The notes under the pieces were generated by a model, which saw only the letters and a program-made list of their open reading frames with translations, searched no databases and was not told the origin of the DNA. 56,983 nt of DNA from Candidatus Aenigmatarchaeota archaeon (GTDB taxonomy: Archaea > Aenigmatarchaeota > Aenigmatarchaeia > QMZP01 > JAFGSV01): positions 1 through 56,983 of the forward strand of contig JAGGXP010000018.1 in assembly GCA_021163005.1 (NCBI GenBank), in the 5' to 3' direction. Of the stretch, positions 9,709 to 17,808 are shown in pieces. A program made the position numbers and the translations under genes. The stretch's first letter is position 1; the number at the start of each line of letters is the position of its first letter.

Positions 9709-12700
9709 ATGAATCCGGATGTTAGGCATTTAATAGAAAAATTTGAAGAAATGCTCACGCTGAACGGGCGCAAAAGGGTTTTTGAGGACGGGCAGAAATT
9801 ATCAACTGATTTCATAAACCAAAAATCCGACCCAGAAGCATTCACGAAAGAATTTCTCATAGAGCCGGTATTCAGAAAATTTAACCTGTCAAAATTAACG
9901 GAAAAGCATTTCAGAGGTATTAAGCAAGATTTGAGAAAAGTTGACTATGTCTTGAAAAACCATAAAGGCGAATCATTTTTAGCTGAAGCAAAGCCTCTCA
10001 ATTCTGATTTATTTGACAAATCATCTGATGGCGCAGTAAATCAGATTAAAGGTTTGTTCAGATTGGCAGAAGTTCAGAGGGATTACGAATTCGGCATAGC
10101 CACAGACGGATTAAAATGGATTTTCATTGACAAAAACTCTAAGGTTGTTTTTCAGTACGACTTGAGAGATGAGTTGGACAAAATAAGAGAAATATTAGTA
10201 GGAAAGGAAGAAGTGTCGTCAGAACGGATTGAAGAAGAAATCAGCAAAAAATTTTATGTATGGTATAACGCACTTCTTCACGGAGGAAAATACAAAGACC
10301 ATGAAAACAAAACCGGAACAATTTCAACCAAAGATTGCTTGGTTGAAAATATTCTTTTTGTTTCAAAGCCCGAAGACAAGAAACAGATAGCACAAACAAT
10401 TATGGACAGGCTCATTTTCATAAAATTCCTGCAATCAAAAGAAATTGTCGGCTATGATATCCTTAAGTATCTATCAAGCTTGGAAGAAAATATCCTGAAC
10501 GAAAAAATGAAACAACTGTTTTTTTCCGTGCTGAATACGAAAGAAAGTGAAAGAGTTGACATTGACCCCAAATTCAAAGGAATTCCGTATCTGAACGGCA
10601 GTCTGTTCGTAAGGACTGATGCAGAAACGAGAAATCCTGATTATAAGATAAGGGCTTTCATACTGAAAAAAGTCATAAAATTCTTGGACTCTTTCAAGTT
10701 CGTTCATACAGAAGACGTGTCCAACAAAAAAATCTTAGACCCTGAGATTCTTGGCTATATCTTTGAAAGGGCCATGACAGCCACGGACAGAAAAGGGACA
10801 GGTGCTTATTACACACCAAAGACCATAACGACCTACATATCAAAAAATACAATTCATCCTGTCATTGTCAAGAAAGTGAACAAACTGCTGAAAGAAAAAG
10901 GTTATAAAGACTCCGAATTGCTTAAAGACATAGAAGAAGTTTACAGGTTAAGGGAATCCACATTAGGAGAGGTTTTCAGCAAAATTATTCTCAATCTGAG
11001 AGTATGCGACAACGCCTGCGGCTCTGGGGCCTTTTTGCTGGCAGCTGCCGATGTATTACTGAAGGTTTACCAGAGAATAAAAGAGGAATTGAGATTAAGA
11101 AATTCTGAAATATCAATGAGAAAACTGATTTTGCAGAATAACCTTTATGGCGTGGATATAAACCCGAACGCCATTGAAATAGCAAAGCTGAGATTATGGC
11201 TGTGGCTTGTAACCGCATACGAGCCTGACAAAGTTGAGCCTTTGCCAAACATAGATTATAACCTACGGGTAGGCAATAGCTTAATCGGTTATGTTGATAT
11301 TAGCAAATTCAAAGATCACAAACTAACACTTTTAGACTGGTATAGTGCTGAAAAATCATTGAATATTCTCCTGAAAAAAAGAGAAGACAAAATCAAAGAA
11401 TATAAAACAGCTGCCGGAGATAAGGCAAGGGAGCTTAAATCAGAAATTGATGATCTTGATAAAAAAATAAAAAAACTGCTTGATATAAATCTGTTCCAAG
11501 AAATTAGCAAGAAAACAAAAATAGACGAGGAAGAATTCAGAAAAATCAACCCGTTCCATTGGGGCTTTGAATTCTATGATATTTTCGATGGCGACGGAGA
11601 GACAGATGAAAAAGGATTTGATGCTATTATAGGAAATCCGCCTTACATAAGAATACAAAATCTTAAATTAGAATCTCCTGCACAAGTAGAGATATTCAAA
11701 AAAATATACAAAACGGCGTCTAAAGGAAATTATGATATTTACGTTTTGTTCGATGAACGATCATTAAAATTAGTAAATGATGTTGGAATATTGGGTTATA
11801 TTCAACCACATAAATTTTTCCAAGCAAATTATGGAGAGGCACTCAGAGGAATTATTTCACGAAATAAATACCTCAGGGAAATTGTAAACTTCATGGATCA
11901 ACAGGTCTTTGTTGGAGCTACAACATATACATGCTTGTTGTTCTTAAGCAAACAGGAACACGAAAACTTTAGGTACGCCCAAATTGATAGAGTAGTTAAT
12001 TTATCTAACCAGCTTGAACAAATTGAACTGAATAAGAAAACAAATATAAAAATCGAGATTATACCTAGCACTTTAGTTTCTAGCTCTCCCTGGTCATTTG
12101 GAGTTGGACAAGAAATATCGATTTTATCTAAACTCAAATCAATTGAAAGCAACCTTGATTCCGTAACTGAAAGGATATTTCAAGGTGTTAGAACAGGAAT
12201 AGATGATATTTTTGTTCTAGATATAAGAAAAATAAAGGGCAAAAAAATATTAGGATTTTCTAAAGCATTGAAGAAAGATGTTGAAGTCGAATTAGGCATT
12301 ACATTTCCATTGGTTAAAGGGGAACAAATGTTAAGGTATTCCATAGATGATGCTAAAAAGAGGATTATTGTGCCATATTATGTAGACGAAAAATATCATT
12401 TAATTAAAGAAAGTGAAATGAAATTAAAGTATCCTCTTTGTTGGGAATATTTGAAAGAAAATAAAGAAATTTTAGAGAAGAGAGAAAGGGGTAAAATTGC
12501 CAAAATTGGTTGGTGGGGGTTTAGTAGAACACAGAATATTGATATAATAAGGAGGCAAAAAATTCTTACTGCTGATTTAGCTAACCATAACTCATTCAGC
12601 CTTGATGAAACTGGTGAAATACATTTCACAAGTGGTTATGGAATAATACCAAAAAAAGACTATCCAATAAAATTACTTTTGACTATTCTGAATAGTAAAT

Positions 12701-12957
12701 TGCTAGAGTGGTATTTACGAAAGATATCAACCACATTTAGAGGAGGTTATTATTCTTGTGAATATAGATTTATCAAAAACTTGCCTATTATAGAAGCAAA
12801 TAAAATTGAGAACAATATTAAGAACAAGCTCATTTCTCTTTGCGAAAAGGCTTTAAATGGCGATAAGAAATCTGAAAGTGAAATAGATATGCTGATTTAC
12901 AGAATCTACGGAATAACTAACGAAGAACAAAAAATCATAGAGGAGAGTTTGAAGTAA
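9709..12957 (+). CDS. Single-chain Type IIG/IIL-like restriction-modification enzyme (N-terminal PD-(D/E)xK nuclease, gamma-class N6-adenine methyltransferase, C-terminal specificity region)
   Basis: VDYVL...LAEAKP (9940-9993) looks like D...ExK. SAM motif I is DNACGSGAF (11008-11031). Catalytic motif IV is GNPPY (11631-11645). A C-terminal region of about 400 aa follows. The gene is AT-rich. Confidence 0.8.
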   Translation: MNPDVRHLIEKFEEMLTLNGRKRVFEDGQKLSTDFINQKSDPEAFTKEFLIEPVFRKFNLSKLTEKHFRGIKQDLRKVDYVLKNHKGESFLAEAKPLNSDLFDKSSDGAVNQIKGLFRLAEVQRDYEFGIATDGLKWIFIDKNSKVVFQYDLRDELDKIREILVGKEEVSSERIEEEISKKFYVWYNALLHGGKYKDHENKTGTISTKDCLVENILFVSKPEDKKQIAQTIMDRLIFIKFLQSKEIVGYDILKYLSSLEENILNEKMKQLFFSVLNTKESERVDIDPKFKGIPYLNGSLFVRTDAETRNPDYKIRAFILKKVIKFLDSFKFVHTEDVSNKKILDPEILGYIFERAMTATDRKGTGAYYTPKTITTYISKNTIHPVIVKKVNKLLKEKGYKDSELLKDIEEVYRLRESTLGEVFSKIILNLRVCDNACGSGAFLLAAADVLLKVYQRIKEELRLRNSEISMRKLILQNNLYGVDINPNAIEIAKLRLWLWLVTAYEPDKVEPLPNIDYNLRVGNSLIGYVDISKFKDHKLTLLDWYSAEKSLNILLKKREDKIKEYKTAAGDKARELKSEIDDLDKKIKKLLDINLFQEISKKTKIDEEEFRKINPFHWGFEFYDIFDGDGETDEKGFDAIIGNPPYIRIQNLKLESPAQVEIFKKIYKTASKGNYDIYVLFDERSLKLVNDVGILGYIQPHKFFQANYGEALRGIISRNKYLREIVNFMDQQVFVGATTYTCLLFLSKQEHENFRYAQIDRVVNLSNQLEQIELNKKTNIKIEIIPSTLVSSSPWSFGVGQEISILSKLKSIESNLDSVTERIFQGVRTGIDDIFVLDIRKIKGKKILGFSKALKKDVEVELGITFPLVKGEQMLRYSIDDAKKRIIVPYYVDEKYHLIKESEMKLKYPLCWEYLKENKEILEKRERGKIAKIGWWGFSRTQNIDIIRRQKILTADLANHNSFSLDETGEIHFTSGYGIIPKKDYPIKLLLTILNSKLLEWYLRKISTTFRGGYYSCEYRFIKNLPIIEANKIENNIKNKLISLCEKALNGDKKSESEIDMLIYRIYGITNEEQKIIEESLK

Positions 12958-12966
12958 GGTGTTCAA

Positions 12967-14121
12967 ATGCCGAGAAAATCTATAAAGATTGACGTGAAGC
13001 CTGATGTTTTCAAATGGCTCAGGGTGAGTGCCGGCTGGAATATTGAGGAAGTAAGCAAAAGAATAAAAACGAGTCCTGAAACTGTGAAAGCCTTTGAAAC
13101 AGGAGATAAAACACCTACTTTTAGGCAGCTGAAAGAATTGTCCCGAAGCTTCAGAAGGCCCGTGGCGGCATTTCTGCTTCCGGAACCCAAGAAGGAAAAG
13201 GGAAAACCGAAGGATTACAGATTCATTCCAGGCAGGAGTGGAATATTTGATAAAAAAACTATACTTGTCTTAAGGGAAGCACGGAGCCTACAGGAAGCAG
13301 GAAAGGATTTATCCAGTAATATTGAATACGAAACTAAGGCGAAAGTTGAAAAGGTTGGGCTTTCAGCTGATCCTGAAAAAATAGCAAAAAAATACAGGGA
13401 AGTCTTCGGATTGACCGAAGAAAAACAAAAAAGATTCAAAAGGACCTATGACTTATTCAATTATCTGAGGGACATCCTTGAGGACATGAATATTCTTGTA
13501 TTTCAGTTTTCTATGCCAGTGGAAGATGCAAGAGGTTTTGTTTTGTCGGATGAATCCCCAGCTGTCATAGTTGTCAACACTATGGATACAATAGAGGCAA
13601 GATTATTTTCTTTGATGCACGAGTTTGCACATATACTGTTGGGGCAATCTGTGATAGATTTTCCAGACATCTCGTCGTCAGTCAGGAACAGCGTTGAAAA
13701 ATGGTGCAATGAGTTTGCAGCATCGGTGCTTCTTCCTAAAGAAATAGCGAGGGTATTATTTGAAGCAAATCGTGGTAATTTGATAGAGAGAACGAGGCTT
13801 AATTATTTGTCGAGAAAATACAAAGTCAGCAAAGCTATGCTTTTATTTAATATGATGAAGATGGGTTATATAACAAAAACTGAATACGAAAACAAACTCA
13901 GCATATATCATCCAAAAGAGGCAGAAGCAAAAAAGAAGGGTGGGAAAGCCGGTGGTGGAATTCCAGCGGATAAGAGGTGCATTTCAAAGGTCGGAACCAA
14001 ATTTGTTTCTCTTGTGGCTAACAATTACGACCATGGTTATATAACCTATACTGACGCCCTGAATTATCTTTCGATAAAATCCAAAAACTTTGACAAAGTG
14101 CTGGCAAAGGCGATGAAATGA
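12967..14121 (+). CDS. XRE-type HTH fused to an ImmA/IrrE-family zinc metallopeptidase
   Basis: N-terminal HTH (WNIEEVSKRIKTSPETVKAFETGDKTPTFRQL). HEFAH zinc motif at 13618-13632. Overlaps the next gene by 4 nt. Confidence 0.8.
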   Translation: MPRKSIKIDVKPDVFKWLRVSAGWNIEEVSKRIKTSPETVKAFETGDKTPTFRQLKELSRSFRRPVAAFLLPEPKKEKGKPKDYRFIPGRSGIFDKKTILVLREARSLQEAGKDLSSNIEYETKAKVEKVGLSADPEKIAKKYREVFGLTEEKQKRFKRTYDLFNYLRDILEDMNILVFQFSMPVEDARGFVLSDESPAVIVVNTMDTIEARLFSLMHEFAHILLGQSVIDFPDISSSVRNSVEKWCNEFAASVLLPKEIARVLFEANRGNLIERTRLNYLSRKYKVSKAMLLFNMMKMGYITKTEYENKLSIYHPKEAEAKKKGGKAGGGIPADKRCISKVGTKFVSLVANNYDHGYITYTDALNYLSIKSKNFDKVLAKAMK

Positions 14122-14612
14122 CTTCTAATTATTATGTTATTGATACATCATCATTGGTTGGGTTGAATAGACACAATCCAATTGACGTTTTTCCCGGTTT
14201 ATGGAAGAAACTGGAAGGATTGGTTAATAAAGAAAGGTTGGTTGCACCGCGAGAAGTGATGTATGAAATCCTTCAAAATGATGATCATCTATCCAAATGG
14301 GTAAAAAAACAGAAAAGGATGTTCAAAGATCCTACTCCAAGACAAATAGAACTTGTGAAAGAAATAGTAAGCAGATATCCCTCTTTGATAAATCTTGACA
14401 ACAAATACAGTGCAGACCCTTGGGTCATAGCATTGGCAAAAGAATTGGCGACAAATCCACAGACAACGGTATTTTATATAAAAAGAATTGTTGTATCAGA
14501 AGAGAAGCTGAGAGGAAATAAAATTAAAATCCCCCTAGTATGCAACAATTATCAAATAGAAAATATGGATATAGTAACGATGTTTAGAACTGAGGGTTGG
14601 AAGTTTGAATAA
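14118..14612 (+). CDS. DUF4411 PIN-like nuclease-fold protein
   Basis: YVIDTSSLV at the N-terminus, ...PREVMYEI..., SADPWVIALAKE. This is the typical DUF4411 pattern and the typical partner of ImmA/IrrE-HTH proteins. Confidence 0.7.
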   Translation: MTSNYYVIDTSSLVGLNRHNPIDVFPGLWKKLEGLVNKERLVAPREVMYEILQNDDHLSKWVKKQKRMFKDPTPRQIELVKEIVSRYPSLINLDNKYSADPWVIALAKELATNPQTTVFYIKRIVVSEEKLRGNKIKIPLVCNNYQIENMDIVTMFRTEGWKFE

Positions 14613-14672
14613 TTATGAATCATCTAGTCTCATAACGTTCGTAATTTTAGTGATGATCATGCTATTTGTTAA

Positions 14673-14996
14673 CTAAACATTGCTTGGATATGGAACTCCA
14701 CAAAGAAACGATGTTTTTGAAATTAACACTAACAACAACAGAACTATGACCACAACACGAATAAACCATGTACCTGTTATCGCAAACTCTGAATTTAAAT
14801 ATTCAGGAAGCAATTTCCAGAATAAAACAATAGAACCAAAAAAGATTACTACTCGAAATATAGAAGTTCCTTCACAGTCAGCATAAATATAAGGAATTTT
14901 CAAATCCCAAGCTGATGTAAACATGAGTCCGATTAGTAAACCTAAGAAAATACCTGTCAAAAATTCTTTATTTTGGGTTTTTTCTTGACCTTTCAT
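14673..14996 (-). CDS. Small membrane protein (3 predicted TM helices), unknown function
   Basis: Hydrophobic segments only and AT-rich like the island. Convergent with the three island genes. Confidence 0.45.
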   Translation of the reverse strand: MKGQEKTQNKEFLTGIFLGLLIGLMFTSAWDLKIPYIYADCEGTSIFRVVIFFGSIVLFWKLLPEYLNSEFAITGTWFIRVVVIVLLLLVLISKTSFLCGVPYPSNV

Positions 14997-15011: not shown

Positions 15012-17753
15012 TTACCTGTACCTCAGGATGCCTGCGAGGCCGCCCATTTCGTAAAGCTGCTCGCCCTCGTGCGTATCGACCGAGACTATTTCGAGTTTCG
15101 TGCCCACGTTTTCCGCGAACTTGTCGAGGACCTCTATGCCGTCGGTTTCTTTTTCCACTTCCACGCTTCCGCCGCAGTCGCATTTCAGCTCTCTGATTTT
15201 GTCCTTTTTGACCATCTTCCTGATTTTCTTCCCGCAGGCGCTGCACTTCCCTTCGACTTCCACCAAGTCGAAGTCCTCGGAAACCAGCAGTATCTCAACA
15301 GAGCCGCTTTCGAGCGCCTTCAGCGTCTCATGTATGCCATATACAGCGAGGCCGTTGTCCTTTGAGAGTTCTGAGAAGAAGCGTTCCAGAAGCTTCCTCT
15401 CCCTTGTCACGGACGCCTCTGCCAGTATGTCCTCGGCTCTTGCAATCATCTCCTCGAGCCCCGGAACGCCTGTATAGGACGTGTCGATGACGCCTATTAC
15501 CTTTGACTTTATGTCAGTCGGGATGTGGTCGCTGTTGAAGAACATGTCCTTTATCGGCCCCGGGCCGCCTATGAGTATGCCTTTCATGTCCTTGGTCTCG
15601 CGGAAATATGAGGTAGCTATCTCCGCCGTCTTCTTGAGGTGGTCGTTCAGCAGTCCTTCCCTGACGCGCGCATAACGGGCCTGTGAATTGTGGACTATGA
15701 TGCCGTTCGCCATGAAGTTCCTGTATTTTGGCACTTCCATGTCGTAGAACTTCCCGTCAGGCCTGACCTTCTCTATCGACTTTATCCTTGCTGATATGAG
15801 CCCGGATTCAGCCATCGAGCGGAGGGACGAGAGAGCGGCGGCTGCCTTGGGAGAACTGCCGAGCTTCTTTTCTATGGTTTTCATGATGTTCCTGTGGAAA
15901 ACCGGATAGCTCATTCCCTTCCTGTCGAAAAAGAAATCCTGGACCTTCGGGAAATCATCAGTCGTGAGGCCCAGCTCGTGTATGAGTCTGAGCACGTGGC
16001 TTCCGAGGAACGGTATCTGGTCCGTGTAGGTGTTTCTGGAAGCTGTCTTCGTTATCTCTGAAAGGACTCCGGCCTTCTTCGCGGAAAGCAGTGGTATATG
16101 CTTTGAAAACCTCAGGAGGGACTCTCCGTCTGTTATGACGAGGGCGTATCTCATGTGCCGGGCGAAGCTTCCCCTCGCCGGCACGGCCTTCATAGAACTG
16201 ATGATGCCGAACCTCAGGAGGAGGAGCTGCAGCTTTGCTATTATATGGCGCTCCTTCATCGTTATCCCTGCCGAGCCGTTGCTTTTGGTTGCATAGCCTT
16301 CTGCATCCCATATGCCGCCTACGAAATGGGCTACAACGTCCGGCGGGGACATGGTTATGGACTCCGGTATGTCCCTCTCGCTGTTTTTGAATACCTCCGG
16401 GAAGCTCTTGCGCAGCATGTCGCACAGGTGCCTTGAATGGAGCCTTGTTTCATGGTAGTTTCTGCCGCCCCTCTTCCTGGGAGAAGCCCTGACACCGAAG
16501 AGCTTTTCGGAAATCCGGGAGTACTCCTCAGCGAGAGCGCGGTCTCCTTCGTTCAGCGTCAGCCGGTTTTTCTCTATGCCACCGTCGCCGATGAAATACC
16601 CAATGAATCTCGCCGCATCCCTTGTCAGCATATTTGGCCATTTTATCGCCGGAGCAGCATTTGCTACTCTGCTCATGGCGGAACGGGGGAGAGCATACGC
16701 GCCGAGAATCCTCTCGAGCAAATCGGAACCCGGTTCCCTTTCGCCCCTCTCGAACTTGGATATGAATGTCTGGGAAACGCCTGCCTTCTCCGCAACCTGC
16801 CTCTGCGTGAGCCCGAGGGACCTCCTCTTTCCCGCGAGAAATTTCCTGCCCTGCTCCGTGACCCTGTGAATCACGGGCGCTTCCGCTTCTATGCTCTGCA
16901 TGCTGCCACTGAAATCAAGCGACCTGAGGCAGAGCAGCCTCTCGCCTGCTGAAAGCTCGCCGGCAGCCTTCGTGCCGAACCCGTCGGGTGTGGGAACGAA
17001 GAATTTGTGCTCAGGTGTCACTGTTATGCTCATGGACGGGGCCTTGGTCGAGATTCTCAGCGCTTCATTGCTTTTTCTGACAAAATAATGGGCATGCCTG
17101 GCGGCGGCACGTGTCATCCTGCTGAAATCATATGAGACGAATTTCTCGCTGCCTATCTCGCTTACCTTTTTTATCCTTCCGTCCGAAAGCTGCATAAAAC
17201 TGTCTTCATGGACGCACCACCCGCCTTTCTTCGTCTTTCCGGGAACAAGGGACTCTATGTGCTTCAGCGACTCTATGCGCTTTCCCGCAAGAAGCCCTAT
17301 CTCAGAGTCAGACTTGTCGAGCACTATGAGGCCGTATATCTCCTTCTCCCTGACCATGTGCTTCAGCGGGTCGAGGACGAACGTCTGGTCGCACCTGTAA
17401 AGCCGCTGGTTGAGCTTCTCCGGCGGCTCTATTGCCCAGAGCTCTATGTCGCTGTCCCCTTCCTTTTCGGAAACGTTGCCGCAGAATATGGCGAGCCCGT
17501 TCGGCGGGGTAGACCTGTAAAGCTTGAGGTGCTGGGCGACCTTTTCGAGCGCCCCGAGCACATTCTTCCTGACCGTCTTCGACTTTATGTTAGCCGCTGT
17601 CCCCTGCTCCTGCGTAACCTGAGTGCCGACTATGTTGAGGTTGGCGCCTGCCGGCACGTATATGGTTATGAGCTCCGTATGCCTGCCGCGTATGGAGCCG
17701 AGCTTCTTTATCAGCCCCTTGAGCCTCTTCTGGGCTATGGTTTCCATGGCCAT
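15012..17753 (-). CDS. prf1: Peptide chain release factor aRF1, interrupted by an intein
   Basis: NIKS (TAANIKS) and YxCxxxF (YRCDQTF) are present. ...[10 protein letters not shown]|C...intein...HN|[10 protein letters not shown] aligns with GGQ|S of e/aRF1. The C-terminal domain has a CxxC...CxC zinc ribbon. The first ATG is at 17753; the track starts at GTG 17762. Confidence 0.9.
15687..17216 (-). mobile_element. Intein (510 aa) with a LAGLIDADG homing-endonuclease domain and an embedded XRE-type HTH
   Basis: Starts with CVHEDSF (Cys codon 17214-17216). Block B is TPEH. LAGLIDADG motifs are GYFIGDGG and GGIWDAEGY. The HTH is [24 protein letters not shown]. It ends with IIVHN (Asn codon 15687-15689) followed by Ser. 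Confidence 0.85.
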
Positions 17754-17808
17754 GTCAATCACGTGCTTAAAATTGAGACTGCGAATTTAAATGAGTCCGC
17801 AGAAATCG

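Follow-up and report, generated by a model that had tools for sequence, protein, structure and literature searches.

A class-1 intein with a Cro/C1 helix-turn-helix module predicted in the catalytic loop of the only class-I release factor of an Aenigmatarchaeota genome

Accessory DNA-binding domains are an established concept in inteins, where they modulate DNA cleavage (PMC8966425). The TliVMA and PhoVMA inteins (7QSS, 7QSU, 7QST) of V-ATPase subunit A, inserted at the P-loop site VMA-b, are archaeal and of class 1; each contains a nested LAGLIDADG endonuclease that is followed, before HINT-C, by an accessory domain (ACD), whereas an unstructured loop of 28-32 residues joins HINT-N to the endonuclease; the TliVMA accessory domain is helix-turn-helix (HTH)-like and alters DNA cleavage (PMC8966425). 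PI-PfuI (1DQ3) and PI-TkoII (2CW7), hosted by ribonucleotide reductase or DNA polymerase, are also archaeal homing-endonuclease inteins with extra DNA-contacting domains, of other folds (PMC8966425). The DNA recognition region (DRR) of the eukaryotic PI-SceI (1VDE, 1LWS) is an N-side, HINT-associated accessory DNA-binding region that extends the homing site (PMC8966425). Here, a contig of the small DPANN archaeon Candidatus Aenigmatarchaeota archaeon (JAGGXP010000018.1, assembly GCA_021163005.1; all 56,983 nucleotides, referred to as the window) was analysed, in which the gene of archaeal release factor 1 (aRF1) is interrupted by a 510-residue element. The element is very probably a canonical class-1 intein that houses a LAGLIDADG homing endonuclease, and the loop it splits is the catalytic one of the sole class-I release factor in the genome. 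The literature searched yielded no description of an aRF1/eRF1 intein or a GGW release factor; the intein survey by Novikova et al. names no release factor and notes that inteins are few in core translation proteins (PMC4760082). A first-pass annotation of the window had not placed this site among the classical intein alleles, which agrees with that search, but the site is not rare: at least 394 protein clusters of DPANN metagenomes carry an intein there.

The precursor is encoded on the reverse strand by a reading frame that is uninterrupted over 916 codons. A protein on record (P0002) is 100% identical to it, with a gene call that begins three codons later at an ATG and yields 913 residues; the ATG at 17753 is the likely true start. 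The precursor search returned at least 394 proteins or clusters at E<=0.001, and the residue, HTH and junction statistics given below are derived from the 120 listed matches. The exteins produce a full-length equivalog match to TIGR03676 (424.3 bits, cut-off 234.7) in two stretches that flank the insert. They share with canonical aRF1 and eRF1 (4AF1, 3AGK, 1DT9, 5LZU) the three domains, the NIKS motif (residues 58-61) and the YxCxxxF motif, whose Y122, C124 and F128 are all invariant in the 120-homologue alignment. They differ from them in that the catalytic loop reads GGW where the canonical factors have GGQ, and in that the gene is split by the intein at that very point. Orthology to aRF1 is not in doubt, given one copy per genome in all 41 relatives; what departs is the defining catalytic residue.

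The host assembly is of metagenome type (43 contigs, 945 kb) and is 91%-complete, and this gene is its sole aRF1. A search of the genome for a second release factor returned only Pelota (on contig C29) and a zinc-ribbon fragment (on contig C4). All 41 sampled genomes of the order contain exactly one aRF1 and one Pelota each, the single-copy arrangement of the canonical factors. The possibility that the GGW copy is a paralogue beside a GGQ-bearing factor was rejected, since neither the host genome nor any of the 41 relatives has a second aRF1.

Three family models identify the insert as an intein: Intein_splicing of Pfam (63.1 bits, cut-off 35.8), intein_Nterm TIGR01445 (25.1 to 29.2 bits, cut-off 24.5) and intein_Cterm TIGR01443 (24.3 to 25.6 bits, cut-off 15.6). 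The matches are far beyond chance. The codons GGC GGG TGG are followed immediately by TGC at 17216-17214, which encodes Cys1 (C183), and the insert ends with CAC AAT (His-Asn) at 15687, after which TCA at 15686-15684 encodes Ser+1. The features of a class-1 intein are thus all present, namely Cys1, the TxxH sequence of block B (T249-P-E-H252), the block F Asp, the terminal His-Asn, Ser+1 and a HINT fold. C183, H252, D674, H691, N692 and the +1 residue S693 are invariant in the 120 aligned homologues, and the junction arrangement GGx/C...H-N/S...R[FY], where the slash marks the splice point, occurs in 121 of 121 proteins (the 120 listed matches and the query).

Intein-less alleles define the boundaries independently of these motifs. 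Six alleles of the same genus (G001, G004-G006, G008 and G009) encode an identical 24-residue junction peptide, and their empty-site DNA exhibits only synonymous differences from the flanks in the window. Intein-less aRF1 proteins share up to 78% identity with the predicted spliced product and are contiguous across the junction. The boundaries at 15687-17216 are thereby confirmed as exact from the sequence comparison, empty sites being the classical proof short of experiment. Shifted boundaries that would regenerate GGQ, with the intein running from the Trp to the Ser and Gln as the +1 residue, were rejected: Gln is unable to serve as the +1 nucleophile, the product would lack two residues, and the intein-less alleles read GGWSQ. 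The first-pass annotation had placed a 510-residue element in a 916-residue aRF1 frame, starting with Cys, containing TPEH (249-252) and two LAGLIDADG motifs, ending in VHN before Ser, and inserted at the residue aligned with the Gln of GGQ. The DNA agrees with its limits to the base, each of the motifs was found, and the insertion point is the one it named, with the loop reading GGW/S here. The alignment with aRF1 orthologues that it had proposed as a check gave invariant splicing blocks in the 120 homologues and contiguous intein-less alleles.

The domain architecture (Table 1) was obtained from Pfam matches and from an AlphaFold2 model of the whole precursor, calculated with an alignment of the 120 full-length homologues. 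The model has a mean predicted local distance difference test (pLDDT) score of 92.6 and resolves distinct HINT, HTH, endonuclease and accessory modules, with confidence falling only at the two junction loops. A Foldseek search retrieved solved inteins with a probability of 1.00. The best match was TliVMA (7qss; E 2.5e-24, TM 0.73 on the target), and PI-TkoII (2cw7), PI-PfuI (1dq3), PhoVMA (7qst) and PI-SceI followed, while the exteins matched aRF1 (4af1) and eRF1. TliVMA and PhoVMA are also the best sequence matches (E 1e-16). PI-PfuI and PI-TkoII align with E ~3e-18 and TM 0.57-0.62, and PI-SceI is a weaker fold match (TM ~0.47). The endonuclease is recognised by LAGLIDADG_3 in two stretches (78.2 bits, cut-off 22.5).

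The segment between HINT-N and the endonuclease scores 47.6 bits against Pfam HTH_3 (cut-off 23) and is modelled as five helices (303-315, 320-327, 331-338, 346-355 and 360-366). Its sequence matches are XRE and immunity repressors (8bny, 6jq1). TliVMA and PhoVMA have their unstructured loop at this location, PI-PfuI and PI-TkoII are without a Pfam-recognisable Cro/C1 HTH, and the DRR of PI-SceI is an insertion within the HINT fold and not an HTH_3 domain. Because the helical domain at 587-651 sits at the ACD position and a Cro/C1 HTH replaces the loop between HINT-N and the endonuclease, the intein has two accessory modules. It is a variant in architecture, not an element of a new kind: where every solved archaeal intein has only a loop, it has a Cro/C1 HTH. 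Capture of the HTH from the neighbouring HTH-ImmA gene (12967-14121) was considered and rejected, as there is no specific similarity between the two (E 0.42).

Table 1 Features of the interrupted aRF1 gene, with residue numbers of the 916-residue precursor and positions in the window.
Feature	Residues	Position	Strand	Description
aRF1 precursor ORF		15012..17762	-	916 aa from GTG at 17762; stop codon 15012-15014
N-extein	1-182	17217..17762	-	aRF1 domain 1 and start of domain 2; ends ...PGKTKKGGW
Catalytic-loop codons		17217..17225	-	GGC GGG TGG = Gly-Gly-Trp; Trp is the intein -1 residue
Complete intein (predicted)	183-692	15687..17216	-	1530 nt, 510 aa
HINT-N	183-301	16860..17216	-	block A (Cys1), block B (T249-P-E-H252); beta strands 189-301, pLDDT ~95
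Cro/C1 (XRE-type) HTH_3	303-366 (intein 121-184)	16665..16856	-	between HINT-N and endonuclease
LAGLIDADG homing-endonuclease domain	381-573	16044..16622	-	LAGLIDADG_3 in two stretches and Foldseek
LAGLIDADG motif 1	384-396	16575..16613	-	catalytic Asp393 (intein D211)
LAGLIDADG motif 2	478-490	16293..16331	-	catalytic Glu488 (intein E306)
Helical accessory domain	587-651	15810..16004	-	helices 587-596, 608-611, 619-634, 638-651; between endonuclease and HINT-C
HINT-C	655-692	15687..15800	-	block F (D674, F683), block G (VHN)
C-extein	693-916	15012..15686	-	Ser+1, then QARYARVRE; rest of domain 2 and domain 3

An HTH segment of 60-65 residues is present in 87 of the 120 aRF1 inteins and missing from the other 33. 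In the 87 HTH-bearing homologues, G305, R313, Q320, Q331, S335 and E338 are conserved at 93-100%, and the mean column conservation of the HTH is 52.9% versus 54.3% for the endonuclease; conservation of this order argues that the HTH is under selection. The length of the accessory domain is variable, and many HTH-less homologues have it doubled: in the 33 HTH-less aRF1 inteins the C-side accessory region often comprises 120-134 residues instead of 50-70. One intein without the N-side HTH, P0018, nevertheless has an HTH_3 match among the precomputed Pfam results, an indication that its HTH lies on the other side of the endonuclease. The accessory modules exchange positions within the family.

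An exhaustive search without profiles, made with the intein only, yielded relatives over its full length (1-510) in other host proteins, eight of which were scanned against Pfam. HTH-bearing related inteins occur in a dCMP deaminase (P0320), in FttA/aCPSF1 (P0345) and in a PHP-type phosphoesterase (P0285), and no HTH was found in the RadA inteins among the eight. Since the module is present in related inteins of other hosts, the HTH is not unique to aRF1; on these matches it is best described as a recurrent, shuffled accessory of this intein group. The XRE-like HTH reported in the first-pass annotation is therefore present, but the description of it as unusual does not hold for a regular module of this kind. 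Two of the eight relatives are themselves aRF1 proteins with two inteins each. In P0252 (1187 aa) and P0255 (1452 aa) the second intein splits the stop-codon-recognition motif YxCxxxF (...TYLYM/C...VHN/CDDHYH...), with the motif Cys as the +1 nucleophile, so that both functional tips of aRF1 are intein targets.

The occupied sites come from independent assemblies, with contigs of up to 829 kb, and their distribution is sporadic at every level sampled. The intein was found in 7 of 41 genomes of the order, belonging to three families, and in 2 of 10 genomes of the window's own genus. Across the phylum, a split aRF1 frame was detected in ~23 of 151 species genomes in 9 families, with sizes from mini-intein forms of ~540-570 aa to full-size frames of ~920-936 aa. 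Mini-inteins of 134-141 aa, without an endonuclease, occupy this site in P0061, P0073, G034 and genomes of family f16. In the aligned full-length homologues the catalytic Asp of motif 1 is kept in 116 of 120 and the Glu or Asp of motif 2 in 117 of 120; the pair is intact in 116, which argues that the endonuclease is under selection.

The intein and extein phylogenies disagree. In the extein tree the window's protein (P0001), P0003 (from G003) and P0004 (from G012) form a clade with a support of 100 in the SH-like approximate likelihood-ratio test (SH-aLRT). In the intein tree P0001 and P0003 are instead joined by P0005 and P0006, and P0004 falls outside this group. When the intein data are constrained to the extein clade, the log-likelihood drops by 65 units (approximately unbiased (AU) test, p=0.00035). 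The pairwise values agree: at an equal extein identity of 74.9% to the window's protein, the other two inteins are 60.8% and 42.9% identical to its intein. From the sporadic distribution and the tree conflict we infer horizontal spread by homing. The trees, the patchy distribution and the mini-inteins taken together point to the usual homing cycle of invasion, degeneration and loss.

The inteins also segregate by the residue at the insertion point. All 14 sampled inteins inserted after Gln form one clade (SH-aLRT 100), and the inteins at Trp and Met sites lie on the other side of the tree. Four of the 14 Gln-site inteins have exteins on the Aenigmatarchaeota side of the main split, among Trp-type exteins (SH-aLRT 86, a moderate value), and one of the four is from G021, a genome of the window's own order. 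The separate clades of Gln-site and Trp/Met-site inteins suggest that the homing endonucleases discriminate the codon at the insertion point, which is that of a "universal" catalytic residue. An escape from homing can be envisaged on this basis, in which intein and loop co-evolved, the loss of Gln (CAR to TGG) was favoured partly because it removed the homing site, and Mtq2, the Gln N5-methyltransferase that modifies GGQ, then became dispensable. If this were true, a selfish element would have helped to push a lineage into a Gln-less release factor. The site-specific clades leave room for the idea but do not support it, the intein frequencies today are similar in the Gln, Trp and Met lineages, and we regard it as highly improbable.

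In the mechanism proposed for the locus, the HINT domain would remove the 510 residues after translation by an N-S acyl shift at Cys1, transesterification to Ser+1, cyclisation of Asn510 and an O-N shift, to give an aRF1 of 403-406 residues with the loop G-G-W-S-Q. The unspliced precursor cannot act as a release factor, because it carries a ~57 kDa intein at the tip that reaches the peptidyl-transferase centre. The excised intein would act as a site-specific DNA endonuclease that cuts intein-less aRF1 genes at GGW/S and is copied into them by repair. The most likely contribution of the HTH and of the helical accessory domain is to extend or modulate DNA recognition, by analogy with the PI-SceI DRR and the accessory domains of TliVMA and PI-TkoII. 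Several points weigh against this assignment. For all members of the family, splicing and DNA cleavage are predictions, as is the contribution of the HTH, and splicing is likewise predicted to tolerate Trp at the -1 position. Deletion or grafting of the TliVMA accessory domain lowered specificity and did not raise it (Beyer et al., PMC8966425), so the direction of the HTH effect cannot be predicted. The clade in the AU test was picked after the pairwise identities had been seen, which makes the p-value optimistic; intein phylogenies built on fast-evolving sequence are moreover error-prone, and P0001 and P0003 are deviant in composition.

The homing reading has to be set against an intein that is fixed and no longer mobile, with an endonuclease and HTH that are relics and a patchy distribution produced by repeated loss only. 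Such an intein must still splice, because its host gene is essential and single-copy. Degeneration after fixation is what the homing-cycle model predicts (PMC8966425), the site does hold endonuclease-less mini-inteins, and the divergence is high (61% intein versus 75% extein identity to the closest relative). Against this, both catalytic acids are retained here and in 116 of the 120 homologues, and the conservation of the endonuclease and HTH is close to that of the HINT domain. Within one genus some genomes have the intein and others do not, and the intein tree rejects co-descent with the exteins. Loss of mobility is accordingly judged unlikely.

A function for the host was weighed as well, either conditional splicing that gates the supply of release factor or a role of the excised HTH-endonuclease as an XRE-type transcription regulator. 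With the insertion at its catalytic tip the precursor is bound to be inactive, the element is the only intein in the 945-kb assembly (the only HINT match), and the Cro/C1 HTH is the type used by repressors. A precedent is WhiA, which PMC3240954 and PMC11701221 present as a domesticated regulator that combines a LAGLIDADG fold with an HTH DNA-binding domain. WhiA is not an intein: it stands alone as a transcription factor of bacteria, and its HTH is C-terminal and of another type. The nuclease of WhiA is degenerate, unlike that of the aRF1 intein, in which the nuclease acids are kept. Most genomes of the genus and order live without the intein, the HTH is dispensable in 33 of the 120 family members, and the sequence revealed no feature of the kind of a redox-trap cysteine pair, which renders a host role very improbable. 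The suspicion that the locus is non-functional, as an assembly chimera, a pseudogene or a non-splicing domain fusion, could draw on the 43-contig metagenome-type assembly and on inconsistent automatic names of the homologues. It is scarcely credible given the frame open over 916 codons, the invariance of all splicing residues, the same architecture in at least 394 clusters of independent assemblies, the standing of the gene as the only aRF1 of a 91%-complete genome, and a confidently folded precursor model. A mobile class-1 intein thus remains the preferred reading of the element.

The element is an ordinary kind of intein at an undescribed but common DPANN site, with sequences that are already public, and the host loop is more surprising biology than the intein itself. 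The nearest intein-less homologues read GGW in 115 of 118 cases (92 GGWSQ and 23 GGWSA) and GGQ in 3, and 29 of the 30 intein-less loci of the order read GGW. The -1 residue of the 121 intein-bearing proteins is Gln in 72, Trp in 28, Met in 20 and Phe in 1. Since intein-less alleles of the lineage also have GGW, the loop is not caused by the intein; the comparison of alleles identifies it as a lineage trait and not as a side effect. The Trp is real, as intein-less and intein-bearing alleles together exhibit it.

Mtq2 was sought with the NCBIfam model TIGR00537. The host genome is without it, the best match being a KsgA/Dim1-type methylase with 26 bits. GGQ occurs in only three sampled genomes of the order, G021, G030 and G124, and these are the only ones with a full-length Mtq2-like match (132.7, 80.2 and 79.2 bits, respectively); reading of the sequence confirmed the NPPY motif in G030 and G021. 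Across the 151 phylum genomes, TIGR00537 matched at E<=1e-15 in 56 of 60 genomes with the pattern PGKxxxGGQ and in 3 of 42 with PGKxxxGGW. Two of these three were inspected and were without NPPY or part of a much longer protein; the third is alike in frame length. The near-cut-off TIGR00537 matches in the GGW genomes G016, G026 and G039 were set aside as not Mtq2, since they lack NPPY or lie within proteins of ~380 aa. Convincing Mtq2 was found in none of the 42 GGW-pattern genomes. Families f13 and f16 have neither the GGQ nor the GGW pattern, presumably carry Met/Phe forms of the loop, and yielded TIGR00537 in 1 of 39 genomes, a weak match of 62 bits. The phylum genomes are related and not independent samples, but the contrast between GGQ with Mtq2 and GGW without it recurs in at least three separate places of the sample. 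The near-perfect association of GGQ with an Mtq2-like protein argues that Gln is truly gone from function in the GGW lineage.

A catalytic Gln shifted along the loop would offer another solution. The Vms1-like factors aVLRF-1 and acVLRF-1 have a GGxSQ loop (Burroughs and Aravind 2019, PMC6514570) that fits the spliced G-G-W-S-Q, and acVLRF1 gives a weak Pfam match over the start of the C-extein. The gene in the window is nonetheless an aRF1 orthologue and not a VLRF1. The shift is weakened by the 23 of 118 close GGW homologues that read GGWSA, because Gln at +2 cannot be the general answer where such forms exist. The spliced GGW protein is probably a fully working release factor without the catalytic Gln.

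The locus adds a widespread allele in a core translation factor to the known inteins. HTH-bearing inteins, HTH-less inteins with a doubled accessory domain and mini-inteins form a natural series for the study of homing-site specificity, and the GGW lineage is a natural variant in which the function of the GGQ glutamine, an old question, can be tested. Many of these essential genes are mislabelled in public annotation: the automatic NCBI names of many homologues, "helix-turn-helix domain-containing protein" or "LAGLIDADG family homing endonuclease", are taken from the domains of the intein, and the JGI automatic annotation of some reads "eRF1/intein/homing endonuclease".

Domain 3 of the aRF1 contains a four-Cys insertion, CSACGKK...CDCGG (15100-15230, reverse strand, residues ~845-865), that resembles a zinc ribbon; on C4, a free-standing ribbon of a similar kind is the source of the weak third "aRF1" match in the host genome. 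Outside inteins, LAGLIDADG_3 matches were found in the host genome at C19:33965-34207 and C42:8133-8318, in frames of 225 and 302 aa, which may be free-standing or intron-encoded homing endonucleases. Directly downstream of the aRF1 gene is a low-GC island (9709-14996, GC ~0.35 versus ~0.51 elsewhere). It comprises a 1082-aa Eco57I/MmeI-type restriction-modification fusion with a TaqI_C specificity domain, a 384-aa protein with HTH_3 and IrrE/ImmA (Peptidase_M78) domains, a DUF4411 protein whose gene overlaps the latter by 4 nt, and a 107-aa hydrophobic ORF. The island looks like an acquired defence island beside the S7-EF2-aRF1 gene row.

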